From Vermamoeba vermiformis (Eukaryota): 64,000 bases of DNA. The DNA lies in assembly GCA_045837725.1 (NCBI GenBank), contig JBEWZL010000166.1:186001-250000 (forward strand), written 5' to 3'. The position numbers and the translations under genes were made by a program. Shown here one piece after another: positions 14,478-63,903 of the stretch; the first letter of the stretch is position 1, and each line of letters begins with the position of its first letter. The notes under the pieces were generated by a model. That model saw only the letters and a list, made by a program, of their open reading frames with translations, did not search any database and was not told where the DNA came from.

Positions 14478-16575
14478 ATGGGTTGTTTTGGCTCTAAATC
14501 AAGCGGTGGAGATCATACCGCGGAGAATGGAGGAGAACCCAAAATCAGATCGAGAGCAACGATCCAAAACCTCCAACAATGCCGTATCAGCCGTCTTATT
14601 AGGCTTACAAGGTTGCGGCAAATCTACAATCAGAAAACAACTTCAGGTATGGAACACTATTAAATCTGTCAAAATTGCAACTGTAATTGCTGCGTATCTT
14701 TAAAATTCATACAACTTATGACACGTTTGGTATTTCCTGGTTTTACCCTCTATATTTGCTATTATAGCTGGGACTTTCACATTGCAATTCCGGCCGGGAT
14801 GCGACCGTTTTTTTTTTTTTGCATTACCAAATATTAGTTATTTTATCTCTTTCATACCAAAACGTGACATATTTAATTTACTGGGTGCATATTTTAATGG
14901 TTGACGCTGAAAAAATCGAATATTTCGGATGACAGTGTCAAACAAATTAACGAAGATTTTAATTCGTATTATCCCAAATCCACACGGAGATAAGATATAT
15001 GTTACAAATGTTTTTAGGTCCCGAATTTATCGATTTTTCCGCAACGGAAGTGTTGACACAGAATCCAGCAAATCTGAACCGTTTCTCCGGTTCATTGCAA
15101 TATAGTCTTTACACATTTAAAAATTAATGGGAATCATATGCTTATTTTAATCACCACTTTAATGTAATACGATGCTAATCGGTTAATTTTGTACAGCTCA
15201 TCTATGGAGGCACGTTTACAGTAAACGAGTTGGAAACATACAAAAACATCGTTATTATGAACTTGATTCAAGTTACCCAACAAGTAAGTTAAAACTCCTA
15301 TTTAGCCGTGATTACTAATGATATCGGTTCCAAATTTAAATTGTCATGATTCCGCCGACAATAGAATTACTTGGGTCAACATTAATATACTAAATGGATT
15401 ATTTTATACGTATATTTGATTATATTAAACTCACCTTGAACTGAAAAACAGATCTTGCAATACGCTAAAAAACAACAAGAAACTGAAATTGATGCTGAGT
15501 AAGTATTAGCGCATTATTAGTAAAATATCGATACTCGTTGATTTATGTTGTTTTCGCGCTTAATCTACCGGTAACACTCGAGTAACTTTAAATTACTATT
15601 TTAGGACGGATAGTTGCAAAATGCTGTTGGGTATCACGAACGTTTATGACTTTACTATTACACCTGAGGTCGTAGCTGCTTTGCAACAAGTCTGGAAGTA
15701 CAAACGAGTAAGTTGCGGCCATAACAATAATAATCAGTTCCGGATCTAACTGAAAATTCTAGGCACACGAGCTTATCGATGTGGCAGTGAAAGAAGACAT
15801 GAAACCAGCTGCTAACTACTTTAAAGAACATTTGAATCGAGTATTTGCCCCTGATTACATGCCCACTGAAATGGATGTGTTGTTAGTCCGTCAAAGAACA
15901 GCAGGCATCAACGCCATTGACTTTGAAATGGAAGGCAAGGACAAGAAGAGCGATTCGAAGAAGAAAATTCACCTCGTCGACGGAGGTGGTCAATTGGCTG
16001 AACGACGCAAGTGGAACACGTACATCAATGAGAACAACACCGTCATCTACGTGATTGGTATCGATGAGGTACGGCAACTAATGCTCGAATTAACTCAACT
16101 GATGCGTATACTAATGATGCCTCGCACTTAGTACGATGTCCCTGCAGCCGACAAAGAAAACAAAGTTACAACGCTAGAACACTCGCTCGAAATCTTGGAG
16201 CAGACACTGACGTACTGCAAAGAGAACAACAAGCCCGTCATTGTCTTCTTGAACAAGACTGACTTGTTTGCTGCCAAGCTCAAAAAGGTGCAGTTCTCGA
16301 CCTTCTATCCTGACTGCAAGGCCGGTGGTGAGTAACTCACTTTGACACGTGTCAAGTCCCGACTGACATTTGTGACATGTTTAGACACAGACCCTGAAGT
16401 CGGCAAGAAGTTCCTCGAAGAGAAGGTGACAGCAATTGCCAAGAAACACAACTGCGACAACTTGTACACGTACTTGACGTGCGCTCTGGACCGAGACCTC
16501 GTCAAGCGTGTGTTCGAATCAGTGCGCGATCACCTCGTCACCACACTGATCAACACTAACTTCGGCTTCGATTAA
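14478..16575 (+). CDS. Heterotrimeric G-protein alpha subunit (divergent)
   Basis: MGC myristoylation/palmitoylation start, LLGLQGCGKST, RQRTAGI, DGGGQLAERRKW, FLNKTD, TCALD; apparent extra base at 14541-14544. Confidence 0.9.
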
Positions 16576-16737
16576 TCGAGCTCGTTAGGTTTCAGCTTTT
16601 AATTTATTTACTGAAATTATTTATGTTCTGTTTATAATACTGATACTTATATTATTTAATTCCGATCTCAATGCACCGCTCCTTGTAAGAGACTTCTAGT
16701 GTACAATAAATACTTATTACTTTATGTACATGCCGCA

Positions 16738-18342: not shown

Positions 18343-20530
18343 ATGAGTAAGCGCAGTTTAGCTAAGAGTAGAGATAAGGCTCCAGTCACTAAGGAGGAAC
18401 CTGAAAAGCCCAGCACAAATGGCACATCCCCTACACCGCCCACCACTGAAGCAATTGCAAAGCCTGAGCAGCACGCGCATCATTCCCATCACCACAGACA
18501 TCCTGTCAGGCACCATAACTATGCCGTGCATCGTGTAGAGGCACATTCGCCATTGTCTTCCGAAAGTCCAGAACAAAATTTTCGTGGATTTTTTAATTTA
18601 GCCGGGATTATTTTAGTAAGTATGCAATTAATCAATGTCAATCATATCTAAATATTCAAAATTTCTCGTTTGAAAATTAATACGAATTAATTGCAATTCA
18701 TTAATTTTTATTTTGTGAAACTGTGGCTACGCGTGCTTATATAGACTTATTAGGTTGTAAATAACTTGCGACTCGTCATTGAAAATCTGCTCAAGTATGG
18801 TTTGCTGATCAATATGAATGTTATCAACCACTACATTGATTGGATAGATCTGTCTTGGACCTTAAGTAAGATTGCACCCGATCGATCAGTAATCTTTGCA
18901 ACCGTTCAATAACACACCATATATAGCACTGCCCGTGTTCATTGGCTATGTCGTTGTTCTTCGAACGCCTTGTGTACCAGAAGCGGATCACAGAGAAACA
19001 AATGAACTGGCTCAGCATGCTCAACATTTCATCGCTGCTAATTATTCCAGCGTCAATTATCAGATCAACGAACACGAACCCTGGTGAGTCTTAAAGTCCT
19101 ACTTAAGCACATCGAGTACTGACTAGTGGATGCACTCAGCTTCGGGCATCATCGTGCTCATGTTGACAGTGATCGTGTGGATGAAACTCGTGTCGTATTG
19201 TGTGGTCAATAAGGAGAACAGACGACTGCACTTGTTGGGCAATACGTATCATGAAGGTAGGAGAATTCTGGTCCCTGCTAATATATATTGACTGTGGTGT
19301 TAGAGCTGGAAGGAGTGGATCCCAAGGACTTGGTGACCTATCCCAACAATTTGACCGTGAAAAGTATCCTTGCTACAATTATTCGTTAATATAACACATG
19401 TCACTGCTAGTTATGAGCCTTAACTGTGACACGTGTCAAGACCTGTCATATTTCATTGCAGCACCCACACTCTGTTATCAAATGAATTACCCGCGCTCCA
19501 AGTCCATTCGCTGGTATTGGCTCACTGGCAAGTTCTTGCAGTTTGTAAGTGTCACGTGCCATAACTTTAATCACGTGCTCCATGCTGACCTCTTGACAGA
19601 TCTTCTTCACGAGTCTGATGGTGTTCATGACCGAGCAGTACGTCAATATGCCTCAATATATTCGAATAGAATAGTAATGTATTCGATGCACAGGTACATC
19701 ACGCCCACCATTCGCAACTCGGTGCACATGGTCAATGCCTCACGCAATGTGGTGTGGATGTTGTCTGAGCGCCTGTTGAAACTCTCAGTAAGTCGTGCTG
19801 ACTTCAGTTTGACACGTGTCAACGGACTGACACTCCGCTTAGATTCCGATGTTGTTTGTTTGGCTCTTGGGCTTCTATTCTCTTTTCCATTTATGGTTAA
19901 ACATCCTCGCTGAACTGCTCAAATTCAGCGATCGATCGTTCTACAAGGACTGGTGGTAAGTGCTACTGCCATTACACTCTAGTGTTGGTTGTTCAATCAG
20001 TCAATTAGGAACTCTACCACACTCGACGGTTATTGGCGCAATTGGAACTTGCCCGTGCATCACTGGCTGTTACGACACTTGTATTATCCGTGCATGCGCG
20101 CAGGCATCAACAAGTACCTCGCTGGCGCTCTTATTTTCTTCGTGTCAGCGGTCTTTCATGAAGTACGGTGATTGGCATCTCGTAGAATATTTGCAACGAT
20201 TAACCCCTTGGCCAGATTATTGTCAGCATTGCACTCCACACATTCAAGTTGTGGTTCTTCTTGGGCATGTTTTTGCAGGTAAGTTAGTTGCTTGTGTGGT
20301 GTGGTGGTCTCATTTTGACACGTGTCACATAGGTGCCTATGATCTGGTTCGGGCGATTGTTCCCTCAAAACTCTCAAATGGGCAACATTAATTTCTGGTT
20401 CAGCTTTTGCATTGTTGGTCAGCCAGCCCTCGTGTTGCTGTAAGTCACGTGCTTGTTCTAGGATATTGATACTAATGTGGCTGCTAGGTACTACTACGAC
20501 TACTATCAACGCGCATATCACGAGCAATGA
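18343..20530 (+). CDS. DGAT1: Diacylglycerol O-acyltransferase 1 (MBOAT)
   Basis: SPLSSE, NFRGFFNL, NLRLVIENLLKYG, APTLCYQ, FYKDWWN, WNLPVHHW, SAVFHE; U12-type intron 19364-19440; apparent extra base near 18944. Confidence 0.95.
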
Positions 20531-20597
20531 AGAGAGTCGTGTACAATACTGATGTATCAAATAACACTAATATATTTACAGCTAGTCGAGGGTACAA

Positions 20598-21850
20598 TTA
20601 TTGTTCGAGCAGTTGTTCAATTGTGAATTCACTGAACGACTTCAATCGGTCCAAGTGTGCTTGTGAAGCGGACACGTCAAAATTAGGCTGCCACAGATCT
20701 TTGAAAGATTGACAGGTGTCATTTGGGGGTCCGTGCGCAACAGAAACAATATGATCCTAAATATGGTTAATTGGCAATGCGTAATAATGAAATGCAGCAC
20801 TCACTGTGACACGATAGATATTGAAGAACCAATCACCGCGTGACACGTGTTCGATCTTCACTGTGGCACGTGCTGTGAGTGTACTGTTGGGACTGACACT
20901 TGTGACAGGTGTCAAAGTGAATTCTGCACGCTGTAGATCAAATCCTAGTCCAATGCTGATCAATTATTAGCTCGAGACCTTGATTTGACACGTGTCAAAC
21001 AGACGTACCCAAGCGCTTTGATGAGTGACTCTTTCAAGGTCCAAAATGTCGCGAACAATCTCATGCGATCTCGATCGTCCACACCTGCACGAATCTGTTG
21101 CCATTCATGAACGGTGAAGCAGTTGCTCATCAAATCAAAATATTCCTCGACTGCTGCGGAGTTAGCTAGCTTTCGATTGCCAAATATGGTAACAAACCCG
21201 AAGTGCGCGGCAGTTCCACATTCATGACGTCCACACCGACGAGCACGTGACAGTCAGCTGCGAGCACGACGAGCTGATGATGGTGCGACACATTGAAGTT
21301 GAAGTTGCTCGGCTATAATTATCACTGATCAGTACAGTACTGTTGCCTAATATAGTGAATGAGTCGTACGTGTTTGAAGTGTGTTTTGCGCTCTTTGGTC
21401 CGTTCAATATGCACAGCACTGTACGGCACGTGTAGCCGTTCATGAATGAGTTTGCGCGTCAACAACAACCCAGCCAATGAGAGCTTGGCATCGTTGTTGT
21501 CTTTGCCTGTTAATGTCCTCTTGTCTGGCGTGTAACGAATAAATCTAGCGAGGAAATTGAAAATAATTAAATTATTAATTAGAATAATATTCAATAAATT
21601 CTCTATCACTGCCTTTCGTCTCATCTCGTTGTTATCTATTCTCGTTATATTGTCACGTACTTTGATATTCGTACTCTCTCGTGCTCTGGTACTAATTGAT
21701 TCGCTTGTGCCCACTGCGCATCTGTTGGCTGCCACTGCGAGACATCAAAGTACCACCCAAGCGGTGTATCATCTAGTGAATGTATGAGATAATATGTAGT
21801 GATTATCAGTGCTATAATGCTATTGTACCTGCGAGTTGTGGTGTTTCCAT
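20598..21850 (-). CDS. 4'-phosphopantetheinyl transferase (AASDHPPT/Lys5-like)
   Basis: FNFNVSH, VGVDVM, FWTLKESLIKALG, GLGFDLQRAEF motifs. Confidence 0.9.
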
Positions 21851-21935
21851 CAAGTAAATACTAAGAAAGTAATAGTTATTAAAGTACCGTTTTGGTTGTT
21901 TTATTCCGCACAATAATACTGCTACATATATAAAT

Positions 21936-23987
21936 TTATGCCTTAGTGACCTCTTCAACGTGGTGTTGAATCAGATCGTACAATCGCTCCACGTGTTGCT
22001 GTTGAGTGGTGGCAGATCCAATGGCAATGCGAATGAAGTACTTGCCCGACATTAGGACGTGCGTTAAATACACTGCCCCTCGCTCGTTCAATCGTTCCAA
22101 CAACTAGGCATGACAATCAGTCACTGCGCAGCATATGAGCACGCATTACGTACCAGTTTGGTCTTGTCGTCCGAGTCGCGGATGCGGAACAATATGAGCG
22201 ACAAGGAGCGCGACAGTACTTCAATGCGCGCATCAGCTCGCAACTGCTGCTCGAGGGTGGTGGCAAGTGTCACGTGCTGACGAATGTACTGCTGCAGACC
22301 CCGCACACCGTAGCTGCGGATCACGAACCATAACTTCAACGCGCGGAATCTTCGGCCGAGCTGCACGTGCCAGTCTAAATATGGTAATGGTGAATGCCGT
22401 TCACTGAACGATGACTAAATATGGTAATGTACCTTTGAAGTCAGTGGCACCGCCCTCACTAGCCTTGTTGCGGAGATATTCGGGCAGTACGGCCATTGAC
22501 GCTGTCAACGACTTCTTGTCGCGCACCCTGCAAGCATTACCAAATTAGGAAATCATTCGCTGCATTGTCTAATTAGGCAAGTACGTACCACATGCACGAG
22601 CAGTCAAAGTTGACCAAGAGCCACTGTACAAAAGTGTCAAACAGAGGTCTCAATAGATTATGTCTAAATAAGGTAATATATCCATAAATAGTCATGGGTC
22701 ACTTGCCTTATGCGGATTGAAGTTGAACGAGTCCAGTGTCTCAGTGCCAGTCACGCGGAACTCGGGACAAATCATCGCACTGCCTGCCCACGCGGCGTCA
22801 AGGTGGTGCCACATGTCTGTCAGTGTCAGTCGCGCGCAGGGCAGTGTTTGACACGTGTCACTTACTGTACTTGCGCGCAATCAGGCCAATCTCTTGCACG
22901 GGATCGACAGCACCGCAGCCCGTAGTGCCGACACAACTCACCACGCAACTGGGCCACAGTCCTGCAGCAATGTCTGCCTAATTAGGTAATGTGTCAGTGA
23001 TCACGTGACTGGAGCACACCGTTCATGAACGCACTTGAATGGTCTGTTCGAGCAGGGCAGGATCAATCGCGTAGTTGTGTGCCGCATCCGCGACGAGAGG
23101 TCTGAAGTTGGGCAGTGGAATTCCTGCAATGATTAGCGCGCGCTTGATCGATGAGTGTGTCTATATTTGGAAGTCGGTGAATACTCGCAATGTTAGGGTG
23201 ACACGTGTCAAAGCGAGGCCCGTACCTGATCGGAACAATACACCACTACACGCTGCGCTACTGTCGCGTCTTGTTGCGCATCGAGGCCGTGTTGTTCCGC
23301 TGTTCTATATTTAGCTGCCAACACCGCGCAGAGCACCGAGTCAGAGGCAGTGTTTTGAATGACACCACCGCCCGTGCCACTCGTCGACAAGAAGAAGTCA
23401 GGCAGCGCTAGCATCTGCACGAGCCAGTCGAGCATCACTTGTTCGAGTTCAGTCAGCGCGGGTGAGGTGATCTGCCGCGTTCAGTGAACGGCTGGTCAGT
23501 ACGAAGTGGATCTGACGCGCTGTTGTACGTACCCACATCATGCCTTGTTGCCCGAGACCAGCGGATAATAACTCGCCCAATATGCCGGGGTAAGATCCGT
23601 TTGAGGGGAAGAAAGCGAAGAAATTAGGACTCTGCCAGTGCGTCAGATGTGGCATTACAATCGCTGTACGATGAATGAGTACCGCGTATAATGCATATAT
23701 ATTGCACTTACTATCAATGTCCTTGCGAATCAAGTCCCAGCTCTGCGCATCTAAGAAGTTTCGGCGTTAATTTCAATTTGTAAATACACGTGCCATTAAT
23801 AGGTTGATATTATCGTCCTATTAATTATAAATATGGTACCTTGAGGTGGGGAAGGAGGCAACAGTTTTTTCACGTCGTTGGGCTGAATATTTGTGTTGCG
23901 CACTGGCTGCTGCTCGATCGAGCTCATGTAATCAGCGATAAAATCAATGAGCTCGTGCCCTGCCTTGCGAAACTGTTCTGCGTTCAT
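21936..23987 (-). CDS. DDC: Aromatic-L-amino-acid decarboxylase (group II PLP enzyme)
   Basis: [36 protein letters not shown] (PLP Lys, across a GC-AG intron), [11 protein letters not shown]. Confidence 0.92.
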
Positions 23988-25263: not shown

Positions 25264-27382
25264 ATGGAACATTTGCAACAACGAGAAAATCAACTGACAG
25301 CCTTGCTGCATCATGTACAACAATTGAACGAACAATATGCCATGTTGTGCAGCAATATCAAGCAGCAGTATCAAATTGAACCGAGCACGGATGTACTTGT
25401 CTTGCAAAATCAACTCTCCAACTTGCGCGACTTTTTCAGCGTGCTCAAGGTATGAATAACATTATAGTGGTCAATACGGTTATTAGAATTCATTTTTTTA
25501 TTAAATTGAAAAAACGACGACTTTCTTTAATCGCCGAGAAGATCCGATCAAAAAACTCAATCAGGAAAGATTTGATTTGATTCGCTGCGCTGTATTTACC
25601 TCGGAACAATTCCAAAAGAGCTACACTAACGTGTTTCTATTGCATTCTTGCAGGCAAAAGAGATTCCCGAGAGTCGCAGTGGCAATGGTCTGTTCTCTAT
25701 TTTGCCGCAGGAGATGATCCAGGTAACTAACCACTCGCAATACGCTTAGAGACATATATATAACACAGATATTTGTTATGCACTTGATATTTACTGCATA
25801 AGTATCACGCGGCGCAAGAGATTTTTCTGAAATTTAATAAAATTAACCGGATCCAGTCACGAACAAAGCTTATTAACTCGAATTAACACTCTATCAATAG
25901 TTGATTATGATGCAACTCAACAGCCCGCGCGATCTATTGTGTGCATTGGGAGCTACCAACAAGCAGTTCCACGCGCTGGTCGGTGAAGCGAGTCAAATCT
26001 GGTCTGCACTGCTGCGCGCTCATTATCCAACACGCGACAGCGCGCACCAGCTGCTGATTGCGCACAACACACCGCGATACGTCTACATGTGGCTGCACTA
26101 CTCGCCCACTGCGCGGCCATTGGAGAGTCAGTCTTTGCGCGAATTCGGCACTTTCAGCTGGTTCGAACAACAACACGCCGTCATCTACCAGGGTAAGTCA
26201 TGCTATATATATATGAGTACTATATATGGATAGGATATCTATCGCGCTTTGTCCCTCGTCGTTTTATTGCAATTTGAAAAAACTCCATCAACGCCTCGCT
26301 GAACGGTTTTTCCTAATTAGGAGAAAGAAAGCACGGCAAGCCCGATGGCTGGGGCAAGTTCACCTTCCCCAACGGCAGCACTTACACGGGACAGTGGCAC
26401 GAGGGAGAGCGCAACGGATTCGGTGTGCGCGTGTGGAGGTGAGTGTTTGACACGTGTCAATGCAAATGTTTCACGGACTGACGCACGAGTGACAGCGACG
26501 GCGGCAAATATGAAGGTGAATGGCGCAACAACAAGCGCGAAGGGTACGGCACGCACAGCCGCGCGAATGGCACCAGTTACTGTAAGTGCAACGAAATTGT
26601 TGCAAACACCGTTCTGACACGTGTCATTAGCTGGCGAATGGAAAAAGAATCGTCGCGATGGCTGGGGCGTGTTCTCGTGGAGTGACGGCGACAAGTACCA
26701 CGGTCACTGGCACCAGTCGCGCAGACTCGGCCTCGGTGTGCTGTATCAGCCCTCTGACCACGCCTCTGACCATGCCTCTGACCACACCTCTGACCACACC
26801 TCTGACCCCAGTGAGTGCGGCACGTACCAGTTGCAGTCGTGGATCATCAACTTGAACAACAACAACAGCAACAACGAGCACAAGTTCAATGTGCACAACA
26901 AGGGCACGCCACTCTTGCCCGCCCTCACGCCACACAACTTCAATGCCAAGCTATTTATAGAACACCGCGGCGACATGTCCGTCTTCGATCACCCGCTCTC
27001 GCTGCTGGCACTCTCCGCTGTCAAAACGAGGTCTTCGCAGGATGTCAGTGCGGACGATGACAGCTACAGCAGTGACAGCTCAGCCACTGACACTCCCATG
27101 TTTGACACGTGTCATCCAGTCGAGCGCACACTGACCAGCGACCGTCACGTGACAGCTGTCAAGCCCAATTTGTACATGCAAACTTTGCAGTTCAATTTCC
27201 ATCGCTCACTGCTGGCCAATCAACACGTGCCGCAGAATGACACGCACGTGGCAGTGACAGGTGTCAAACGACCCATCAGCGAGCTCGAGAGTGACAGCTC
27301 CGCACTGACGGACGAAGAGCTCGAGCTGTCAGATGTGTCACGTGATCACGTGCGCAAGAGACACAAGTCGGTGGACAAATAG
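25264..27382 (+). CDS. F-box-like and MORN-repeat protein
   Basis: Coiled N-terminus, LFSILPQEMIQ|LIMMQL F-box-like segment, repeats such as YEGEWRNNKREGYG and GEWKKNRRDGWG. Confidence 0.8.
26751..26808 (+). repeat. 12-bp coding tandem repeat (CCTCTGACCACA x5; SDHA/SDHT)
   Basis: Read directly from the sequence. Confidence 0.85.
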
Positions 27383-28585: not shown

Positions 28586-30185
28586 ATGCCGCGATTGCTC
28601 AGCGCGAGTGAACGATCACGCGTGGGGTACTGCGTGCTCTTTCTGTGTCAAACACTCTTCGCGTGGCTGTTGCGAGATCTGATCAGTCCCAAAATCACGC
28701 CTGAATGTACGTCATTTTATTTTTAATATGGACATATCATTATGTTTTATTCAATGCGCTGCTAATCGAGCTTAAATAACGAACAAAATCAGTTGGATCT
28801 GAAATAAATTAATTAAATTCGAGTGTAATATTAATGTATCGCACTACAGGGTATTTGCGCATATTTGTGTTCGATGATGAAGGCTGCGCCACTTCACCAA
28901 ATTGTGTCGCCAAAGCGAATGTGATCCGACTCTGCTTCGCGTATTTCATGTTCTATTTTGTGCACGTGATCGTGTTTCTAATTATGGCAGCACGACACAA
29001 GTCACTCGAACACTTCGCTTCAGTGAACAGCTATGACATGCGCACGTGGCCCCTGCAAGAGACAGTGTACAAAGCAGAGCTATTTTTAGCGCACTACTGG
29101 ATCCCCAAACTAGTGGTGCTGCTGCTATTTATAGGCCTGTCGATACTCATCAACAGCGACATATTACTATATATAGGCTACTTTGGATTCTTCGGCGGTG
29201 GTCTGTTCTTGTTCCTGCAAATCATCACCCTGGTCGATTTTGCCTATTTTTGGAAAGAGAATTGGTCCTCACGCCGCACACTGGGCTGGTAAGTTGACAC
29301 GTGTCACATGACGTACCGCACGACTGACGCGCGTGTCACAGGCAGATCAGCATTCGCGTGATGACGGCAGTGCTGTACATACTGAGCGCGGGACTGTTGG
29401 CCATCATGGTGCACTGGTTCGTACCGAGCACGGACTGCGTGATCAATCTCGTCGTGCTGCTCGAGACTGCACTCGCGGCACTGCTCTTGTCGCTGGTCTC
29501 GTCGCTCGAGGCCGTGGAGCGCGGCTCACTGTTGACCTCTGCAGTGGTGACTGTCTACTGCGCATTCCTGTGCTGGGCTGCGATGGCTGGCGAGACAGGC
29601 ACTGGCTGCAACACTGATCGCGGTAGGTGATTGGTCTGCGGACTGGGATGTGCATTAATCCGTTCATGAAACAGATGACTTCCTCGACTTCCACACTCAC
29701 TGGGGCATTTTGATCGCTGTAAGTCACGTGACATAATTATTGCACTTTGTTCTGATCGGTGCCAAAAATAGACCAATCTGCTGACGCTCTTCTCGACCAC
29801 CTACGACACATTCTCCTATTTGACGCAACAGCCAGTGGACACCAGCGAAGTGCAGTACGTTTCAATGAATTCACGTGCTCAGGACGTTGAACCTTCCAAA
29901 TTTGGCTTGACCAAGTTGATGGTGGTGTTCGCGACTGCATCGACCTATCTCATGTCGACCTACGTGGGCTGGAACTTGACGCACGTGGACACGGAGCCCG
30001 ATGCTGGCACGGTGGCATTTTGGATCATGGTACGTGGTGTCACGCGATGACTATTTATAGACACTAACACGTGCCTGCAGATCTCCGCGCAGATATTGAC
30101 CGTGCTGCTGTACGCGTGGTCACTGCTCGGGCCATTAATTCTGCGCCGCTGCATGAACCGCGACGATGACTGGCACGAGGAATAA
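28586..30185 (+). CDS. Serinc/TMS (TDE) family membrane protein
   Basis: LFLFLQIITLVDFAYFWKE, GSLLTSAVVTVYC, LLYAWSLLGP; multiple TM helices. Confidence 0.85.
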
Positions 30186-41684: not shown

Positions 41685-41767
41685 GGGCTATTTTTAGAAC
41701 TGTCATTTATTGTTGACACGTGTCACTCAATTGCTATGTACAGAAGGAGGGTGCGGAATAACTCGTC

Positions 41768-43676
41768 TTATTCCCAGAGCACGACTACACCATTGCGATC
41801 ACAGCTCGCGATCTGATGGCCGTTAGGGTGCCACGCTGTCGCGACCACTGTAGTCCTGTAAATAGCGTCAATAATAAACACACGCAGCTGCACTACACGT
41901 ACTTGTGTCCCTTCTTGAGAATGGACTCGAGCTTGCCAGTGGTGGTCTCCCAGATGAACACGAGGCCATCGATCGAGCCCGCAGCAATGTACTGGCCATC
42001 GGGACTGAAACAGGCACGCGCAAAGTTGACGCCACTGCGATAGCTGTCGTGTCTGTCGGGGTGGGTGAGTGACAGGTGTCAAAGTGAGTGCCGCACGACT
42101 TACTTGAATGTGACTACTTCCTCCCACGTGCGGTTGTCAATCAGCTTGAGTGTGTTGTCGCGACTGTTGGTCAGATAGGTCCTGCCGTCAGGGGCGAGTG
42201 TCACCGAAGTGATCTGCTGCGAGTGCAGGTTGTCCATGTCGCGGATGGGCTCGCCGTTCTTCATGTCCCAGATGCGCAGGTGCGAGTCCAAGTGCGCGGA
42301 GGCAATCATCGAGTTGTCGTACGAGAGTGCCACGCCATTCGCAGAGCTGAAGCAGAACAGCGTGCGAATGCAATAGCCCTTGGAGAGGTCCCACACCTTC
42401 AAGGTGCGGTCGTGCGAGGCAGTCACCACGCGCTGATTGTCAAACGAGAACAGTGCGTGCGACACCTTGCTGATGTGGCCAGTGAGCGAGTGTCGCAGTC
42501 GGTTCAGTCCGCCCGTGTATCGTCCACACGCGCGCTGCATTGTCGTTGCTCGCCGCGAGCACGTTGTCGTTGGGCGTGTTCCAGTCAAAGCACGCGCTGT
42601 TCACACTCTGCACGGCCCCGCTCAGCTGACTCTTGGCGCTGCCAGTGGGCACGTCCCAGAGCTTGACGAGCTTGTCCTGGCCTGCAGTGACGAGCATCAT
42701 GCCCGAGCTGTTGTAGCTGACGGAATTGCACTCGCCCTCGTGCGCGCTGATGGTCTTCTTGGCCTGCTTGGGGATGGTGACGTGTATCAGGCCACTGCCA
42801 CGGTCCAGCAGTGACTCGGTGAGCGGTCCTGAGGGCTGCGTGCCCTTGACAGCCTCGAGCAGCTGATTCTTCTTGTTCAGATCTGCAATTGTCTGGTACA
42901 ACTGACTCGCTTCGTCCATCTTCTTCGCGTCTTCAGCGGCACGCTTCATCCACCGATCCAACAGCTCCTTGTTCTCTTTCTCCACTTGCTTCACGCGCTC
43001 TTCAGCACGCACGAGCTCTACTTGCAGTGCTTGCAGCTCTTCTTTCAGGATCGTGATGGTCACATCCCGCTCTTTGAGTTCTTCGCGCGAGGACTGCAAA
43101 TTGTGCTCGAGATCGCTGATCTGTGCTCGCAGGTCCTCTATTACACGCAGCTTGTCTTCGTACTCCTCGCGACTCGTTTTCAATTGGCCGGTCAGATCGA
43201 GCAGACTCTTCGAGCTCTCTGAGATCTGTTTGTAGGCTTGGGCCAGCTCCTCTTGCAGCTTGAATATACGCTGATTGAGTTGCTGTTCTTGTTCTGGTGA
43301 GATGCCCATTTGCTGCTCTTGTTGGTACTTTTCCACTTGTTTGATCAGATCTTCATTGCGTCGCTTCAGCTCGTTGTTATCGCGCTGATATTTGATGCTG
43401 TCTTCACGCGCCTGTCGCTCTTTCAACAACAGCTTGTTGTCTGTAGTGCGAGAGTTAAAGGACCTTAACAACTGAAATTGAATGAATTTTTTAGTAATTT
43501 CGAAAATTAAAAATAATTATTCTTAAATAAGCTAATTAATCGAACGCCAATAATATGAGCTATTTAATATGTGACAGGATACTTTCGCTGATCAGATCTT
43601 GAAAGCCTTTCGTTTGGAGCTGATTGCGTCTTGTTAGCTGAGCGAATATGTCTTGTCGCCAATCGAACGCGCTCAT
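41768..43676 (-). CDS. ATG16: Autophagy protein ATG16 (coiled coil + WD40)
   Basis: WRQDIFAQL ATG5-binding helix, ENKELLDRWM, WD40 repeats (HDRTLKVWDL, NSRDNTLKLID); U12-like first intron; apparent extra base near 42520. Confidence 0.92.
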
Positions 43677-44497: not shown

Positions 44498-44653
44498 TGC
44501 CGCACTTGCCTTATTTAGTAAATACGACCCTTTTGTACAGAGACACGTGTCATCTAGCAGCTTATTGAGTGACACCTGTCAAACACCGCTCTGTGTTGAA
44601 TGTACAATTTTTCCGCAGGATTTATTCCGAGTGTTACGCTACACGTGTATTTC

Positions 44654-48825: not shown

Positions 48826-51080
48826 TTATTTGTTCTCTTTGACAGGGGCCAGCTGTAAATTGTAGGCAAGCAACTCTTCATTAGTGAGTTCCCCAGGTGA
48901 GCCTGTCATCAATTCATTGCCTTTGTTAGACTTGGGGAAAGCAATGACGTCACGCAGAGAGGGGGCATTCAACATGATAGACAAGAGCCGGTCCAATCCC
49001 AGCGCAATACCTCCGTGCGGTGGAGCACCGTGCCCGAGAGCTGTGAGCAAGTGATTGAATTCATTGACTTTGCGCTCCGACAACAGCAACACATCTTTCA
49101 ACACCGTCAGCTGATCAGCAGCGCGATGAATTCGAATGGACCCCCCACCAATCTCCATGCCATTCAACACGAGGTCGTAGTGCTGGCCGCGGATCACAGG
49201 CAGTTTGTGAATGGCCTTTGGGTCCGTGCTGTGACCGCGCCACTGCTCTAACAGCGCGGCATCTTCGGGCACGGGGGCTGTGAATGGATGGTGCGTGGCC
49301 TTGACAACACCTGTGACACGTGTCAAAATGTCATTCGAGCGCAGAGGTTGACAGGTGTCACTTACCGTCCTCGAGTGTGAAGAGCGGGAAATCCACGACC
49401 CAAAAGAAGTGATAGGCGTGCTCGGGCAGTGTCAACAGTCCGCGCTTGATCAGCTCTTGGCTGCAGTGGACGCGCACTTTGCCGAGGTCCTGGAAATGAC
49501 ACGTGTCAATCGGTGATCTGTCACTAGTCGCTATAAATAGATCTTACATTGAGTGGATCATCACCCAGACCTGCGCTGAAGAACAGCAAATCTCCCTCTT
49601 GAGCGCCTATTTCCTTATTTAGTGCGCTCATCTCTGCGGCGGTCACGTGCTTTGTCAGGGAAGATTTCCACTGGCCGTCTGCCACCACGCGCACAGCTGT
49701 CACGTGCTCCACTCCGCGCTGCTTGATCTCCTCCATGACACGTGTCATTTGCGGCCCTAAATGAGGTATACGCAGTGCGCGCACAGTGCCACCATCGACC
49801 AGGGCAGAGCGGAACAATTCAGCGCGCGTGTCTCGCAAGAGGTGCGTAACATTGCACAACTGCAGCTCGTAGCGCGTGTCGGGCTTGTCACTGCCATATT
49901 TGTCCAAACACTCGCGGTACGTCACGCGCTTGAACGGCAGAGTGAGTTCTATATTTAGAAACTTGCGCCAGAGCACTCGAACGAGGTGTTCAATGACGTC
50001 CTGCACCGTCTTGGCATCAGCGAATGCGAGTTCGAGATCGACTTGCGTGAATTCCGGTTGACGGTCAGCGCGCAGATCTTCGTCGCGGTAACAGCGCGCG
50101 AGTTGAAAGTAGCGCTCAAAGCCACTCATCATCAGCAGCTGTTTGTACTGTTGCGGTGATTGCACCAAGCTGTAGAATCGTCCGCGCTCACGCGTGGGCA
50201 CAATGTACTCGCGCGCCCCCTCGCTGGTGGTGCGGAACAGAGTGGGGGTCTCGATCTCAAAAAATCCGCGCTCAATCAGTGTCTCGCGAATAGTCTGCAC
50301 TACTCGACTGCGCGTGCGTATGTTGTGCTGCATCTGTGGTCGTCGCAGATCTAAATAGCGGTACTTCAAGCGCGTCTCCTCATTGAGCAGCTCTTTGATA
50401 TTCATGCTGAAGGGCAGTTCCGTGCTCTCATTCAGCACTTGCAGCTGTTCTGCAACGACTTCAATAGCTCCAGTAGTCATATCTTTGTTCGTTTGTCCTG
50501 TTGGTCGCTCATGTACCACTCCCGTCACGCTCACTGTGGATTCAAGCGGCAGATCGCTGATCCTCTTTAATGTGTCGCTGTCTGCATCAACAAATGAACA
50601 ACGCTGCGCTATATCCACACGATACACTACCTTCGATCGGTATTTCCAGCTTGACTTGAGTACTGCCTTGCCCGTCGCGCAACACTGAGATGCGGTTCAG
50701 TTTCTGTGGACTCAAACTGCAGAATACATACCGATAAATACCAACACGTGCGTGTGATCACCATCGCGCTGCTTCTTATTTACATTGGTTAATATGCGTT
50801 TGGCCTCGATCCAGCCCCCCAGCACGACACGCTGGCCAGTGTGCTGCGCAGTGAGTGTCCCGCAGCTGTGTGTGGGCAGTGAGAAGGCGTAGGACTTGGC
50901 TGCTGCGTGCACGAGATGCAAAGCACGCTGTTGACACTGTGGCCAGTGCGAGGGCGCAGTGCGGTGTGGAGTGACGTGTTTGCGACCAGTGCGCGGTGCA
51001 CACCACAGCGCGGCTCTCGGTGCACGTGCGAGGACTGTGCGCGAGTGACGCAGTGCAGTGTGGAGCAGTCGTGGTAGCAT
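48826..51080 (-). CDS. DARS2: Mitochondrial aspartyl-tRNA synthetase
   Basis: THSCG, RLKYRYLDLRR, QSPQQYKQLLM, RCYRDEDLRADRQPEFTQVDLE, GGGSIRIH, PPHGGIALGLDR. Confidence 0.97.
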
Positions 51081-57651: not shown

Positions 57652-59298
57652 CTATTTACGTCTCAACAACACGAGTAACATGTCATTGACATTGGTGCCA
57701 GTGTGTCCGACTTCCAATGCATCGCCCAGGGCGTGAAACACGTGATAGGAGTCGTTCTGCTCCAAGCGATCACGTGCGTTCAATTGCTGTTCATGAATGC
57801 GCGCCACACTGCTCGCATCGATCACGGCACCCATCGCGGGGGAGTTGCCTTCAATGCCGTCGAAGGCTGCCGAGATGACTGTCCAGTCCCAGTGCTGCTG
57901 CCATTCATGAACCGAGTCACGTGACTGCAGACCCATGCCACCATCGACCAGGGCTGCGAGTAGGAGCTCTTGATTGCGACCTCCGCGGCCCTTGCCCTTC
58001 ACTGTCACCGTGCACTCGCCAGTACACAGCAGTGCCACCAGCTGATCCGTGTCTCGGAGCTCTCGTCCGAGCGAGTGCAGTGCGGGACACTGACCAGGGC
58101 CTATCAATTCACCGCGCAGCTGTCCAGCAATCATGTGCGCGAGTGACTGGCCCACATCACGTGCTTCACCCTTCATGCTGCGCGTCACCACTGTCACGTG
58201 CTGCACGCCTGACTCGCGCAACAGTTGTGACACGGCAAGTTCGGCGGTGAGTGCGCTGCCAATCACGTGATTGGTCACGTGCTCGAACAGTGCCGCACCG
58301 GGCTTGGGAGTCTCGTGCACCTCACCAGCCACACCGCGCTGCACGTGCTGCAACACTGCGGGGGGCACTTGTTCGCCGCGCTGCTGAATTCGTTCGTGAA
58401 GGACGCGCATGGCCTAGTGACAGGTGTCAAACAGTGCTCGGCAAGGAGCATCACGTGACTTACATCCTGGTAGGTGGAGGTGTCAGGCACCGTGGGTCCT
58501 GAGGCAATTACATCGAGCGGATCTCCAATCACATCGCTGAGCACGAGACTGATCAGCACCGAGTCATGCGATTCACCTGTTGCGGTCAGAGGACATTGCC
58601 ATATTAGGTGATGACGTTACCTTCGATCACGTGACGCGCGAGTTGTCCGCCTTTGACGGCAGAGAGGTGTTTGCGCACGGCATTGAGCTCGGTGATGTCC
58701 GCGCCAGACTTGAGCAGCAGGCCATTGATCGTCTGCAGCTCGTGCAGTGTGAGCGGGGCTTGGGGCAATTCGAACAGACTCGAGCCACCGCCACTCATCA
58801 ATACCACCACTGCGCGGGGGTGATCCGAGGCTGTTTCGCTGCTCGGGGTTAGGAATATGGAGTGTAGTTATTAGGTATAGCTTACTTAATGATACGAAGC
58901 TGTTCTAATGTGCCATCAATGGTGCTTTGATCTAAAATTGGATGTGCTGCGAAATTGATTTTAATATTGATGTTGCTATTCGGTCCCCCAAACTGATTGG
59001 GATGTGATTGACCCTTAGGTATATTAATTGCACCATATAAATTATATTTGTCGTTGCTGCGATTCGCTGCATCAATAAGGCCTTGACACATCTCCGCTGT
59101 CGCTTTGCCCGCACCAAGTACGACAACGCGTCTATCGGCACCGAGGGGATAGCGCAGCGTCGGTCCACCATTGGGTGCGTGGATCAGGATGTGATTGTCT
59201 TGAAAGGCGACGTGTTTCTGCACCAATTCACGCGGATTCACTGCGCGAATGCCGTGCATTATAGCCTTCTTAGCGAGCTCTTTGATTATAGCGCTCAT
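57652..59298 (-). CDS. Glycerate kinase, MOFRL family (GLYCTK/TtuD-like)
   Basis: GAGKA, SGGGSSL, ELNAVRKHLSAVKGG, SDVIGD, IASGPT, GGRNQE, TGTNVND. Confidence 0.93.
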
Positions 59299-59524: not shown

Positions 59525-61368
59525 TCAATCGTCCAAGTCCACATCAGTTCTGAAGCTGATCTTGATCTCGCCATCATCCTGCGCCTTGGCTCGTCTGCGC
59601 GCCTCTTCGTCCTCATCGGGCACATTGAACTGCTGCATGGCGAGTGCTGCGAGATCAATGCGCGCTGGCCAGTACGCGAAGGTGAGCACGTGTATGTAGA
59701 GATTGAACAGCGCGAGGAAGGCGAGGAACTGCGCGGCATTGTTGGTCTGTGGTCCGACATAGCCGAACACGACGCCAATGATGGTGGCAATCAAGATGAG
59801 CACGGTGAATGTGGCCAGGAAGGTGAGGCGGAGGGCAATGTCCTTGTCGGGATCAATGTACGCGAGTGTGGTGACAATGGTGCGCGTGAGGGAGGGCGTG
59901 ACAGCGGAGTGGGGCGTGGAGGGTGGCGTGGACTCGGGGGCCACCTGTTTGACGGACTCTTTGAGCGCACTGCCCGCTTTGATGATCAGGAACAAGAGCC
60001 AGCACACATAGGCCAGCACCACCAGCAACATCACCACGTACATGACCTGAACGGTGACACGTGTCAATCGCTGCACTGCAAGCAAGGGGTCCACTTACCA
60101 AGTAGCCCGGTATCTCGTTGAGCGCACTGCCTGGATCGTCACTCGTGTACAGTCTGACGGAGATTAGTGCGTGACAGGTGTGACATGTCATCATCATGCA
60201 TGACACGTGTCAATGGTACGTACTGCGTCCAGGTGTAGATGGCGATGGCCAGTATCCAAAACACGAGCATGAGCGCCACTTTGGGTGCGTAAAATCGCTT
60301 GTAGCTGCGCGCGAGGGGCGTCTTCTTTCTGAACGCATCGAACATGACGAGCCAGAACAGCAGCAACAGGAACAAGAAGCTGCTCAGCAAGAACTGATTC
60401 AAGAACACTGGGAACCAGCCACTCATCAGCACGGACAGCGCGTAGAACGGATCTGAGGCAAGAGTGTTAGTACGATGTGCTGACACGTGTCAAACAGCGA
60501 GCAGCACGCACTGTTGTAGGCCAGCAGACCGAGCAGCAGCGCACCAATCCAGCGCTGTTCAATGGCCCAATCTCCCCAGCGATGTCCTGTCATCTTGCGC
60601 GCGTAGATGACGAGCCAGGCCGCGGTGACGAGCAAGAACACGAATCTGAACCACAGCTCGAACACGGTGTACGCCTCATTCACCGCGCTGAAGGTGAAGC
60701 GACAGTCGCGCAGCTGTGCACTCTCGGGGAATGCGAGCACGTGCAGCTGAATGCGATAGGCCCAGTGCGCGAGGTGCTTGGAGTGCAGCAGCGTGACGTC
60801 ATCGCACCACTCGCTGCCCAGCTCACAGGTCACGTGACGACTGTGCGGCGTGGTGCTCGCACTCAACACTTGCCACGCACTGCCCTCGCTCTCTTGCGCG
60901 TAGATGGTCTGGTGGAAAGTGATGCTCGTGTCCACATCTGTCACGTGTCACTTGTCGTTCACTGAAAAGTCCAGTTGCGGCAGTTACGTACCGACAGTCT
61001 TCCAGTGTTTGAATGACGCGATCAAATAGAGCTCTTGATTGAATTTAGAGAGGCCTGTCACTGATCCCTCCCATAATGACCCGTTCTAATGCGTGTTAGA
61101 CCAGATCCGGGTAATTGAATTTTACTTGAATTTATTACCTGTGCCCATTGCAGTCCCGGAGTTGGGTTTTCCACTTCGGCCGATATAAACACATCGGGGC
61201 CTAGTGATGAATATTTTTGTTGATTTTTTGTCAATTTTCTGTTTTTGTTTAAATTAAATTACCTGCCGCGCCGATAATAATTGAAATGATGAATAACACG
61301 GAGAACACTACAAACATCAGCAAGAAGGTCCTCTTACTGAGATTGTGCAGGTTCATCCTCATTCGCAT
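59525..61368 (-). CDS. TMEM181: TMEM181 (Wntless-like) membrane protein
   Basis: NLSKRTF, YTVFELWFRFVF, WAIEQRW, NDPFY, FYAPK, NLYI..LTFAYWP. Confidence 0.88.
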
Positions 61369-61616
61369 AATTCTAAATTGCAAGCGAGTTAGCTCTGTGA
61401 ATGTAGTGCAGCGCGGCACTTACGAGTTCTCCATTGCTTGAATAGATGACCTAAGAGGGCAGTTAAATTATCAAGTTGTTAGTGTGCGTATCATATGCCA
61501 CGCTGTTGTGCACGCAGTTGTCGAGCTAATGCAGTTCTGCGCTATTTCTCACACCCAACAAGACCGAGCGCAACAACACAGCTCCGATTGTACCACCACT
61601 CTATTGTCAGTTAAAT

Positions 61617-63903
61617 ATGGCTCAACCACCCATTGCACCCCCTCCTGGATTCGATGCTCCTCCTCCTGGACTCGATCGACCTCAAGATCTTGATCTCAAG
61701 TCAATTCAACAACTTGGCAACAAAATATTAGCCAAATCCAACGAAACAACTCTCAGCGATGATAACAAGCATAATAATAACGCTGTAGTGTCTGAGGACA
61801 GCAACGAGAAGAAAGAAAAATTAGAGAACGCATCTGTTAAAAACCAGAACGAGAGAAACACTAATAAACGGCGTGGTAGAGGCACCAATCAACCGCGCAA
61901 TCAAGGCGATCGTCATGCTAACAACGCACATTCTCACACCGAGGAGCATAAACCGCATTCAAAGAATCCTGGCCGAGGTCGTGGCCAACAGCGCGGAGAA
62001 CAATCATCGCGCGGCCGAGGTGCCAATAATACACAGAGTACTAATGCACCTGCTGCTGGCAAGAAATTGAAGAACATTTCAGATTTCAACAGTGCTCGAT
62101 CAGACACCAAAGCAGCAGCGGAGAAGCAAGAAGAGCTCACGAGCACCACTGTCCCCAGCGAGGACGCAGCAGACGACAGCGATGCCGTGTACTGCTTGAC
62201 GTGCTGCGAGCCCATTGCCTTCTTCGCACTCGGACCGTGCAATCACCGCGATCTGTGCGACAAGTGCTCGCTGCGCATGCGCGAGTGCTACAAGGACAAC
62301 ACGTGTCCGCTGTGCAAGAACGCGATTGAACAGGTGCTGTACACGCGCGACACGAGCAAGAAGTACGAGGAGTACGATGTGAAGCAGATGTGGTACGACG
62401 ACCTGTTGAAGGCGTACTTTGAAGACGAGGCACACTACACCAAGACACTGACGCTGTGGGACTTTGTGTGTCCCGTGTGTCGCGAGCACAAGAGCAAGTT
62501 CAACGGCCTGTTCGCGCTGCAGAAGCACATCAAGAGCGCGCACGAGCTGTACTACTGCGAGGTGTGTTTGAAGTACCGCAAAGTGTTCCTGCACGAACAG
62601 AAGCTCTATTCCAAGCAAGAGCTGCCCAAGCACAAGCGCGAGGGTGACAGCGAACTCAAGCTCAAGCCGCACTCGTGGTGCGAGTACTGCAAGCAATATC
62701 TGTTCGGCGAGGACGAGCTGTTCTACCACTGTCACGACAAGCACGAGACGTGTTTCTTGTGCGAGGGCAAGGGCATTCGCTGGCAGTACTTCCGCAACTA
62801 CGATCACCTCGAGCGACACTTTGACGCGCGGCACCACCTCTGTCACGATCAGGAGTGTCTCGCGCGCAAATTCGTGGTGTTCGACTCGCCGATTGAACTG
62901 CAGGCCCATCGCATCAGCGTGCACGGCAAGCAGATGAGCAAGCAGGAGCTGTTGCAGGCCAAGACACTGCAGGTCAATTGGAATGCCGGCACGAACACCA
63001 ATCAGAGCTCCGGGGCCAGTGCCGACGAGGGCTACGTGATGCACTTGAAGTTCGATGTCGGGGATGGTGCGCCGTCACCGAATGCCATCAAGTCCGCACT
63101 CGCCAGCAACGAGGCACCCAACAACAACAACAACAATAACAATAATAATAGTGACGGCAATGTGGCTGCCAATCTGTCGCGTGATGAGATTGCCAAGTAA
63201 GTACATACGAGCCATATATCACTGACACTCGATTGACACGTGTCACAGACGCAACAAGGCCGTCATCTCCGCCATGAAAGCCTATTTAGGCAATGAGGCC
63301 AAATTCACGCAGTTCCGCAATGTTTCGGCGCAGTTCCGACAGCGTCAACTGAGCACCGATCAGTACTGGCAAGAATTCATTTCCATATTTGGCAAAGACC
63401 CAACCGGCCTCGATCTCTTTGAAGCCCTGACTGAACTGTTGCCCGACACTGACGCAGACCTCCGTGCGACACTTTTGACACTTGTCGCGACTGCTCGTCT
63501 CGACCAGGGCCCGTCACGTGTGGACTCGCGCCAATTTCCTTCTTTGGCAGGCAATGCACGTGACGCACAACAAGTCTCGCTGTCAGCTAATTATAGCACA
63601 CTGCTGCGTCCCTCGGCACCCCCCTCGCGCGAAGAATTCCCCGCCCTGGCCCCGTCCCGTGCAGCGAGTGCCAGCACACGTGGCAGTGCCCTGCACCAAC
63701 ACCAGTACTTCCAGCAACACCCCTCGCTGCTGCCCAACTTCTACGCGCCCAGGAGTGCTGGCAACGCACCGAACTCTGCCGCGCAGCAATCCAACAATAA
63801 TCCCGCTGGCACCAATGCCGCGGTGAATAATCCCGCTCCAGCCAATCAGCAGCAAGGTGGCAAGAAGAAGAAGAAACAAGTGCAAGTGCTCAGCTGGGGA
63901 TAG
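61617..63903 (+). CDS. ZNF598: ZNF598/Hel2 RING E3 ubiquitin ligase
   Basis: RING (CLTC..PCNH..CDKCSLRMR..CPLC), C2H2 fingers, KFVVFDSPIELQAH, EEFPAL motifs, KKKKK tail. Confidence 0.93.

Follow-up and report, generated by a model that had tools for sequence, protein, structure and literature searches.

A highly iterated 12-bp palindrome in short introns and other transcribed DNA of a Vermamoeba-related amoeba

The 64-kb stretch of amoebal DNA analysed here (the window) carries long open frames that encode ordinary eukaryotic proteins, and scattered through these genes is an exact 12-bp palindrome, TGACACGTGTCA. The proteins include a PAK-like kinase with ankyrin repeats, a ZNF598-like RING protein, a mitochondrial-type aspartyl-tRNA synthetase (AspRS), ATG16, EF-Ts, a PIG-L deacetylase and a dienelactone hydrolase; no tRNA genes or Rfam families were found in the window. 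To judge from its proteins, the window is eukaryotic and its closest named relative is Vermamoeba vermiformis: a first protein search with the ZNF598-like frame gave nearest named homologues in Dikarya fungi at only 33-39% identity, and a protein 84% identical to the window (P0152) falls in a 90%-identity cluster that includes an EukProt protein of V. vermiformis. An NCBI record (P0209) is from the same species as the window, being 99.7% identical to the window AspRS exon and continuing into the same intron letters, and P0198 and P0207/P0208 are relatives at approximately 95%. The available part of the V. vermiformis CDC-19 genome description reports a draft of 59.5 Mb with 41.7% G+C and 3.5 introns per gene.

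The palindrome is present in 22 perfect copies, the first at position 16343 with none before it, and its frequency is about one copy per 2 kb of gene-rich DNA. No copy appeared in 100 dinucleotide-preserving shuffles of the window. A looser pattern, TGACANNTGTCA, matches 30 sites (shuffle mean 0.15, maximum 3), namely the 22 perfect copies and eight centre variants, of which seven read TGACAGGTGTCA/TGACACCTGTCA and one reads TGACAGCTGTCA; the centre dinucleotide is CG in 22 sites, CC/GG in seven and GC in one, and an A or T centre occurs in 0/30. Markov chains trained on the window itself, motif copies included, predict between 0.01 (order 2) and 0.55 (order 5) copies of the 12-mer against 22 observed, and independent pairing of the 147 TGACA and 134 TGTCA half-sites in the window predicts 0.31 occurrences of TGACA-NN-TGTCA against 30. 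As both expectations lie far below the counts, lower-order composition is not the explanation, and half-site abundance and base composition are ruled out as the source of the palindrome. The 30-nt flanks of the 22 copies have a mean ungapped identity of 0.300, compared with 0.280-0.288 in five sets of random positions, and a maximum of 0.45, compared with 0.42-0.47; inspection by eye of the borders of 18 motif introns revealed no direct repeats or target-site duplications (0/18). One exact dispersed palindrome, far in excess of Markov expectation and with unrelated flanks, is what distinguishes elements of the HIP1 (highly iterated palindrome 1) type, and TGACACGTGTCA is confirmed as a real, sharply bounded, highly iterated palindrome without mobile-element flanks. 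The first-pass annotation of this stretch had listed 22 perfect and eight variant coordinates, all of which the pattern count reproduces, and was right that the flanks are unrelated and that the first 16 kb hold no perfect copy. It had also named two ways in which the enrichment might be explained away: lower-order composition, against which the excess stands in the shuffles and at Markov orders 2-5, and a dispersed miniature inverted-repeat transposable element (MITE), for which neither shared flanks nor target-site duplications were found.

The internal anatomy of the palindrome is strict. Inverted TGACA and TGTCA half-sites are separated by 2 bp in 30 sites and by any other spacer from 0 to 8 bp in at most one, everted arrangements number at most one each, and direct repeats at most five; the geometry recognized by TALE (three-amino-acid loop extension) homeodomains, inverted TGACA half-sites with a 2-bp spacer, is found in 30/30 sites. 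The inner core ACACGTGT occurs 27 times between 14,001 and 64,000, 24 of these extending to the 10-mer and 22 to the 12-mer, where the palindrome stops: the -1/+1 bases are complementary in 5/22 copies, which is the chance rate, and the preference for outward T...A flanks is weak (23/44). Imperfect copies comprise nine with one mismatch (seven with a single centre variant and two with a non-centre change) and 17 with two mismatches. The nine include no CpG-to-TpG product, and CpG observed/expected is 0.92-1.16 across all sixteen 4-kb bins, without depletion; the methylation- or repair-driven conversion that was initially named as one alternative is not supported by these figures. The small number of imperfect copies, together with a CpG ratio near one, fits selection rather than decay of inserted copies. 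The asymmetric variant is present in both orientations.

The distribution of the perfect copies is centred on introns: 16 lie in GT-AG introns of 49-70 nt, three in coding sequence (27103, 33132 and 49736) and three in sequence resembling untranslated regions (UTRs; 19427, 27481 and 41714). None of the 22 is clearly outside a transcript, and divergent promoter spacers contain no copy other than that at 19427. This bears out the initial description of a motif mostly in short introns, with some copies in coding sequence and some in 3' gaps, and the coding readings FDTCH, LTRVS and MTRVM proposed at that stage are correct. Eight of the 16 intronic copies are supported by RNA contigs or homology, and eight by a gene model made for this analysis alone. 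The RNA evidence consists of contigs from four runs of four studies, labelled only as probable RNA, with joints of the form GT..AG or CT..AC that skip 48-114 nt, from which it follows that the contigs are spliced RNA. The listing covers 15 of the 58 joints and 32 of the 285 contig pieces, so that a missing joint at a copy is no evidence; the perfect copies within introns of listed joints are those at 16343 and 23199, and 2/14 distinct introns in the listed joints carry the motif. For the remaining copies a gene finder was written, with ten long frames and the RNA joints as its training set. Its 85 predicted introns total 5.4 kb (8.5% of the window), and in them the density of perfect copies is 2.95 per kb (16/22 copies), versus 0.09 per kb in exons and 0.11 elsewhere. 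When the gene finder was retrained without any motif-bearing intron to avoid circularity, it predicted 69 introns (4.6 kb, 7.2%), which contain 13/22 perfect copies and 3/8 variants. Among predicted introns of at most 100 nt, 19/77 carry a copy, and motif introns have nearly the same mean length as others (61.8 versus 60.2 nt). An intron test based on splice signals alone was uninformative and was not used (its candidates cover 21% of bases and include 16/30 window copies and 26/71 copies on the metagenome loci described below), and a test for an open frame through the motif does not separate exons from short open introns.

The sites and their placement are collected in Table 1. The AspRS exon map is derived from P0001, a transcript-derived protein with 96% identity, and the protein P0153 (83% identical) joins ...SRDEIAK to RNKAVISAM across intron 63197-63248. 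Excision of intron 22817-22865 restores the frame of a decarboxylase-like gene; the end at 19693 of an intron neighbouring 19788-19842 fits a contig start at 19694; and at the 26615 copy, where the CTGAC within the motif is the only branch-like word, a contig piece (X6) begins right after the predicted intron, at 26631.

Table 1. Occurrences of the palindrome and its centre variants in the window, with placement and supporting evidence (+ and - denote strand; aa, amino acids; ORF, open reading frame)
Site	Form	Placement	Evidence
16343..16354	perfect	intron 16328-16384 (+), 15 nt past 5' splice site	GT..AG joint 16326->16384 in RNA-like contigs, 4/4 runs
19427..19438	perfect	55 nt upstream of predicted ATG 19482; 5' UTR or promoter-proximal	own gene model; no intron found
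19810..19821	perfect	predicted intron 19788-19842 (+)	own gene model only; lost on retraining
20316..20327	perfect	predicted intron 20279-20332 (+), 5 nt before 3' splice site	own gene model only
20710..20721	variant TGACAGGTGTCA	between or at ends of convergent genes	RNA joint 20756->20807 adjoins
20903..20914	variant TGACAGGTGTCA		pattern match
20986..20997	perfect	candidate intron 20956-21008 (-), 11 nt past 5' splice site	splice-signal and open-frame heuristic only
22849..22860	perfect	intron 22817-22865 (-), overlaps 5' splice site (GTAAG/TGACAC...)	also predicted by both gene models
23199..23210	perfect	intron 23161-23225 (-)	CT..AC joint 23160->23226, 3/4 runs
26448..26459	perfect	predicted intron 26439-26495 (+)	own gene model, both trainings
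26615..26626	perfect	predicted intron 26582-26630 (+), 4 nt before 3' splice site	gene models
27103..27114	perfect	coding (FDTCH), 254-aa ORF 26618-27382, MORN repeat	RNA-like contig continuous 26631-27576
27150..27161	variant TGACAGCTGTCA	coding, 254-aa ORF 26618-27382	RNA-like contig covers
27255..27266	variant TGACAGGTGTCA	coding, 254-aa ORF 26618-27382	RNA-like contig covers
27481..27492	perfect	99 nt past stop at 27382; 3' UTR facing convergent gene	within RNA-like contig
29295..29306	perfect	intron 29289-29341 (+), directly after GTAAGT	gene models; loose contig end (X15) before 29341 reads last bases of upstream exon
33132..33143	perfect	coding (LTRVS), 653-aa ORF 31726-33687 (-)	RNA-like contigs cover
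39041..39052	perfect	predicted intron (-), 39026-39093 or 38975-39093	gene models
41714..41725	perfect	spacer between convergent PIG-L-like (+, ORF ends 41684) and ATG16-like (-) genes	
42070..42081	variant (sense TGACACCTGTCA)	predicted intron 42053-42103 (-)	gene models
44570..44581	variant TGACACCTGTCA	convergent spacer: + gene ends 44497, EF-Ts-like ORF ends 44654	one-mismatch copy at 44541
49314..49325	perfect	AspRS intron 49311-49365 (-), 3 nt before 3' splice site	exon map from P0001
49349..49360	variant (sense TGACACCTGTCA)	AspRS intron 49311-49365 (-), overlaps 5' splice site	P0001 exon map
49497..49508	perfect	AspRS intron 49490-49547 (-), 7 nt before 3' splice site	P0001 map; retained in orthologous intron of relative
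49736..49747	perfect	AspRS coding (MTRVM), variable stretch of GAD domain	P0001 exon map
58418..58429	variant (sense TGACACCTGTCA)	predicted intron 58414-58463 (-), 4 nt before 3' splice site	gene model
60055..60066	perfect	predicted intron 60047-60098 (-)	gene models; gene strand ambiguous
60201..60212	perfect	predicted intron 60154-60223 (-)	gene models
60481..60492	perfect	predicted intron 60453-60511 (-)	gene models
63234..63245	perfect	ZNF598-like intron 63197-63248 (+), 3 nt before 3' splice site	P0153 protein and gene models

The motif-free first 16 kb contain ordinary genes (the dienelactone hydrolase and the PAK-like kinase) with 12 predicted short introns of the same style; zero copies in twelve introns is only mildly unusual, because about one intron in five carries the motif. 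The hexamer CACGTG is found four times in these 16 kb and 112 times in the rest of the window, and TG/CA observed/expected is 1.05-1.20 there versus 1.18-1.45 elsewhere. The edge of the left 16 kb may be a compositional or functional domain boundary.

The motif can occupy any part of an intron: of the 19 intronic copies, two overlap the 5' splice site, ten are 6-22 nt past it, and seven are close to the 3' splice site, 3-8 nt before it. Eight of these 19 offer a YTRAY word between 9 and 20 nt upstream of the 3' splice site, and in 7/18 motif introns the YTGAC of the motif is the sole YTRAY word 8-40 nt from that site, which would put the branch A 12-17 nt (in one case 26 nt) before the end of the intron. 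In ten other motif introns there is a separate CTGAC, CTAAC or CTAAT, 9-18 nt from the end (one at 32), and intron 63197-63248 has both the branch word of the motif and a separate one. The remaining 11/19 copies are too far upstream to be branch sites, and their host introns have a separate branch word. Branch words that stand alone in this organism have the form (A)CTGACAC, so that the motif consists of the branch-site word (5' half) and its complement (3' half); from the position and wording of these elements, use of the motif as a branch site in the seven introns is likely.

On the sense strand of intronic copies, T precedes the motif in 15/19 and A follows it in 6/19 (p=0.008), in introns of balanced composition (A 0.279, T 0.276), but this asymmetry arises wholly from the seven copies that abut the 3' splice site, where the following base is C or T (T in 9/12 and A in 6/12 for the other twelve), and so is poor evidence that the motif itself is recognized strand-specifically. 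The variant reads CC on the sense strand in 3/3 window introns and in 7/11 candidates on the metagenome loci. Predicted RNA folding is marginally more structured in motif introns than in other introns (z -0.47 versus -0.07, p=0.055), and with complementary flanks in only 5/22 copies and no Rfam match, a structured RNA element was rejected.

The motif recurs beyond the window. When metagenome contigs were scanned for pairs of copies spaced 130-160 nt, at least 116 loci came back, most of which were unrelated tandem satellites or other organisms and were dropped. The choice of about 28 window-like loci, 20 after overlap removal, was made by eye and is subjective. The 20 retained loci resemble the window in composition, have short GTAAGT...YAG introns with the motif in the same places, and do not overlap the window; contigs of the same region from different samples are 99.66-100% identical, and at that level overlapping loci are uninformative on evolution. 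The 20 loci amount to 89 kb with 71 copies, and 40 of these copies belong to the pairs by which the loci were selected. According to Pfam matches, one locus (L064) has a variant copy in the gap between two ORC2 exon frames and another inside the first frame, and another locus (L006) has two variant copies within a 717-aa POP1 exon. The presence of the motif on about 20 unlinked look-alike contigs, selected by the motif pair itself, suggests that it is genome-wide in at least one member of the lineage, and that coding copies are not rare there. Viral contigs gave no match to the two-copy pattern (one pattern, one spacing). The only Rfam family found in the 20 loci was a U3 small nucleolar RNA gene (L056, 4902-5131, minus strand, 74 bits), with no spliceosomal small nuclear RNA. 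The satellite loci (L002, L029, L039, L051, L066, L079, L088 and others) contain TGACA-SS-TGTCA in units of about 30-200 bp, with as many as 20 copies in a locus; GC and GG centres predominate, and these loci probably belong to other organisms.

A relative with approximately 95% protein identity provides one orthologous comparison. P0208 and P0207 are two frames on a single partly spliced transcript that pass through the intron orthologous to 49490-49547; the transcript keeps this motif-bearing AspRS intron, and the other three introns of the gene are spliced out. In the frames reading 'PIDTCH' and 'MSHQ', 9/12 motif positions are identical and three are compatible, whereas the upstream letters of the intron show several substitutions and a one-base shift, and the tail is CATCAG instead of TTTCCAG. 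Reconstructed from translated frames, this single example of retention is consistent with selection on the motif.

Other exact palindromes are iterated in the window. GTCACGTGAC occurs in eight copies (27144, 27781, 29723, 32372, 41188, 55914, 57916 and 60829) versus 0.05 expected from base composition, with unrelated flanks and no branch-site likeness; seven of the eight are in predicted exons, often read as H-V-T. ATCACGTGAT, also without branch-site likeness, has four copies. CCTAATTAGG has six copies (5642, 22977, 26312, 27973, 57592 and 59370) versus 0.07 expected, four of them in predicted introns; it embeds a branch-like CTAAT, together with a TAG serving intron 22978-23034 as its 3' splice site, and is also a TAATTA homeodomain-type word. 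The 116 occurrences of CACGTG in the window include 27 in long frames, versus 11.2 +/- 2.7 in synonymous-codon shuffles. The word TTACCATATTTAG recurs in the AT-rich introns 22375-22432 (-) and 20757-20806 (-), and stands twice in one 58-nt intron, just past the 5' splice site and as the 3' splice site. A frequent CCAAT-containing word was rejected as a dispersed motif, being a perfect 15-bp tandem repeat at 51738-51877 (unit CTGACCAATCAGGAG, about nine copies) inside a 388-aa frame (51417-52583) that has no Pfam match. Splicing in the window also includes a GC-AG intron of 83 nt in the decarboxylase-like gene (22624-22706, minus strand, GCAAGT...CAG, joints in 3/4 runs) and alternative 5' splice sites 4 nt apart at 31711-31776 (-), where the joints 31710->31773 and 31710->31777 are each found in different runs.

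The closest known systems include HIP1 (GCGATCGC), an 8-bp cyanobacterial palindrome that is common in coding DNA and whose function is unsettled. Like HIP1, the amoeba palindrome is short and exact, recurs at roughly one copy per kilobase, is dispersed among genes, has unrelated flanks and is not mobile, and the 'HIP-like' label of the first-pass annotation is a fair one for an exact, highly iterated palindrome of this sort. It differs in being 12 bp long, eukaryotic and a different word, about 30 times denser in spliceosomal introns than elsewhere, with a tolerated G/C centre and no sign of a link to methylation. The likeness to TALE-homeodomain sites that was also pointed out then agrees with published sites: in the available parts of the sources, the crystal structure of the TGIF1 homeodomain has two monomers bound to ATTGACAGCTGTCAAT (PMC6158717), and the MEIS3 motif from SELEX (systematic evolution of ligands by exponential enrichment) is TGACAGGTGTCA (PMC5449588). 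The half-sites, their inversion, the 2-bp spacer and the T...A flanks are identical, and 8/30 window sites are letter for letter those given in these parts, whereas the main form in the window is CG-centred (22/30) and the sites, at a density of about one per 2 kb, occupy introns and gene bodies instead of enhancers or promoters.

In Trichomonas and Giardia, essentially all introns have a fused branch-site/3' splice-site motif of about 12 nt, non-palindromic and fixed at the 3' end; the 7/18 motif introns with a branch word near the 3' splice site resemble these, but the amoeba motif is palindromic, variable in position and present in about one intron in five. The periodic A/T clusters (PATCs) of C. 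elegans, which are anti-silencing signals, and the dosage-compensation entry motifs of flies and worms, which are degenerate GA-rich or 12-bp non-palindromic sequences, are likewise concentrated in introns or gene bodies of expressed genes rather than promoters, and possibly domain-specific, as the first 16 kb without a copy might also suggest. Introners, known in Micromonas and Aureococcus, are repeated sequences across many introns of one genome. They resemble one another over their whole length, carry terminal inverted repeats at both ends of the intron and show direct repeats or target-site duplications, whereas the amoeba introns have only 12 bp in common, at any intron position and without border repeats, and copies also occur outside introns. 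When the literature was searched for palindromes in short spliceosomal introns, the Amoebophrya introners came up; as far as the available part of the source describes them, these have inverted repeats (PMC7789003) and differ from the amoeba motif in every defining feature. Across about 8.4 million papers, which did not include subscription journals or supplementary files, the 12-mer string is present in just two, both on unrelated virology; the 10-mer cores match 56, with no title on such a motif among the 30 listed, and the available part of the V. vermiformis genome paper does not mention palindromes. Within this scope, a HIP-like iterated word or homeodomain-type site with an intron-centred distribution in an amoeba is unprecedented.

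The reading favoured here, held tentatively and at somewhat less than an even chance, is that the palindrome is a selected site for a putative dimeric DNA-binding protein of TALE-homeodomain-like specificity, placed in gene bodies; this keeps to the first-pass idea of a mark on transcribed domains bound by an abundant protein. TGACACGTGTCA would be a cis-element under purifying selection across the genome of a Vermamoeba-related amoeba. Its inverted TGACA half-sites, always separated by 2 bp of G/C and weakly flanked by T...A, would be read as double-stranded DNA by an abundant homodimeric protein with the known TALE-homeodomain specificity. The sites would be placed inside transcription units, and most copies would be intronic because no other transcribed DNA escapes coding constraint; those in exons would persist where the protein tolerates x-T-R-V-x or D-T-C-H, and where a copy abuts the 3' splice site its YTGAC may double as branch site. 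Selection, a binding protein and a gene-body function (as a domain or licensing mark, or an intragenic regulatory site) are what we infer. The scarcity of imperfect copies and the retained orthologous copy would make purifying selection the simplest account, and dyad symmetry with a tolerated centre is the pattern that a dimer on duplex DNA produces. The coding copies (three perfect and two variant in the window, and those in POP1 and ORC2 exons), the convergent 3' spacers and the two orientations of the variant seem to favour a DNA site, and the iterated palindromes without branch-site likeness (GTCACGTGAC, ATCACGTGAT) and the CACGTG excess in long frames favour it as well. So do the T...A flanks, the identity of the variants with the TGIF1 and MEIS3 sites, and the recurrence of the motif in the same intron context on about 20 unlinked contigs. 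Several observations weigh against this reading. No homeobox WFxNxR signature was found in the window and the 20 loci (153 kb). Regulatory DNA sites are expected in promoters, and only the copy at 19427 is near a gene start; non-genic DNA (26.7 kb according to the gene model) has three perfect copies, 0.11 per kb against 2.95 in introns. Transcription-factor sites are usually degenerate, unlike this nearly invariant palindrome. Half of the intron assignments (8/16) come from a crude gene finder only, the motif is the sole branch candidate in the seven introns described above, and both its branch-word 5' half and the CTAAT of CCTAATTAGG point to RNA.

The last of these points belong to the main rival, a possible but doubtful one, that the motif is an element of pre-mRNA: (U)UGACAC would be an extended branch-site word and the 3' half its exact complement, acting in splicing (by supplying a branch site, as a decoy, or by pairing with a second branch word) or tagging unspliced or read-through RNA until removed by splicing. 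All 30 copies are in or beside transcribed DNA, 16/22 perfect copies are intronic, and the preference for introns over non-genic DNA is thirty-fold; the branch distances in the seven introns are like those of the separate branch words, which are themselves CTGACAC-like, and the second intronic palindrome with CTAAT, the sense orientation of the CC variant, the sense-strand T/A flank bias and the retention of exactly the motif intron in the transcript of the relative are what such an element would predict. Single-stranded recognition offers no reason for dyad symmetry, however; a hairpin stem would have only 4 bp and motif introns are not clearly more structured, 11/19 copies are near the 5' splice site or in mid-intron with a separate branch site present, the flank bias is due to the seven 3' splice-site copies alone, and some copies remain in the sequence of mature mRNA. 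As a branch site the motif would have a secondary role if it is a DNA site and a primary one if it is an RNA element. A tagging system for gene bodies or introns is also conceivable, though on balance unlikely: tens of thousands of copies of the branch word joined to its complement, selected in about a fifth of introns, would be recognized by a putative dedicated dimeric protein, either as DNA or as RNA of both the sense and the antisense strand. Such a system, if real, could license genes, distinguish properly spliced sense mRNA from transcripts that are unspliced, read-through or antisense, or separate its own DNA from foreign DNA in an amoeba that hosts many giant viruses.

Explanations without function fare worse. 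An origin in mutation or repair, whether by template switching at quasi-palindromes seeded by the branch word or by biased conversion, would account for several different exact palindromes being iterated in the window; the seed TGACAC is independently common in introns, and restriction to transcribed DNA could reflect transcription-associated repair. This is improbable, as intermediates are missing (two non-centre one-mismatch and 17 two-mismatch copies), the site shows no CpG depletion or TpG excess, the motif was kept in an orthologous intron with diverged surroundings, and branch-word seeding would not yield one fixed 12-mer at 5' splice sites, in exons and in 3' spacers. That the motif is the relic or core of a mobile element that creates or invades introns (an introner or MITE, for instance with collapsed terminal inverted repeats) is most improbable: the abundance in introns, often at the very end (GTAAG/TGACAC... 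or ...GTGTCA/CAG), recalls introners with inverted repeats such as those noted above in other protists (PMC7789003, from the part available), but the flanks are no more alike than random, border direct repeats are absent (0/18), motif introns are as long as others, copies lie in exons and 3' spacers too, and neutral relics predict many decayed copies, not 22 perfect ones beside two with a non-centre mismatch. The MITE/introner candidate is largely refuted by the flanks, the border repeats and the scarcity of decayed copies. Chance, base composition, or an assembly or sequencing artefact can be practically dismissed, given zero copies in shuffles and 0.55 at Markov order 5, splicing of copy-bearing introns in RNA-like contigs of four runs, and independent metagenome assemblies that show the same motif and context with at least 99.66% agreement between samples.

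Vermamoeba grows in culture and serves as a standard host of giant viruses and Legionella, so that pull-downs, reporter introns and comparison with viral genomes are feasible. If the palindrome is selected, it would be a very abundant, almost invariant and previously undescribed signal inside amoeba genes, and would offer a tractable case for studying what short introns do beyond being removed, whether HIP-like word systems exist in eukaryotes, and how a branch-site word came to coincide with a homeodomain-type DNA site.

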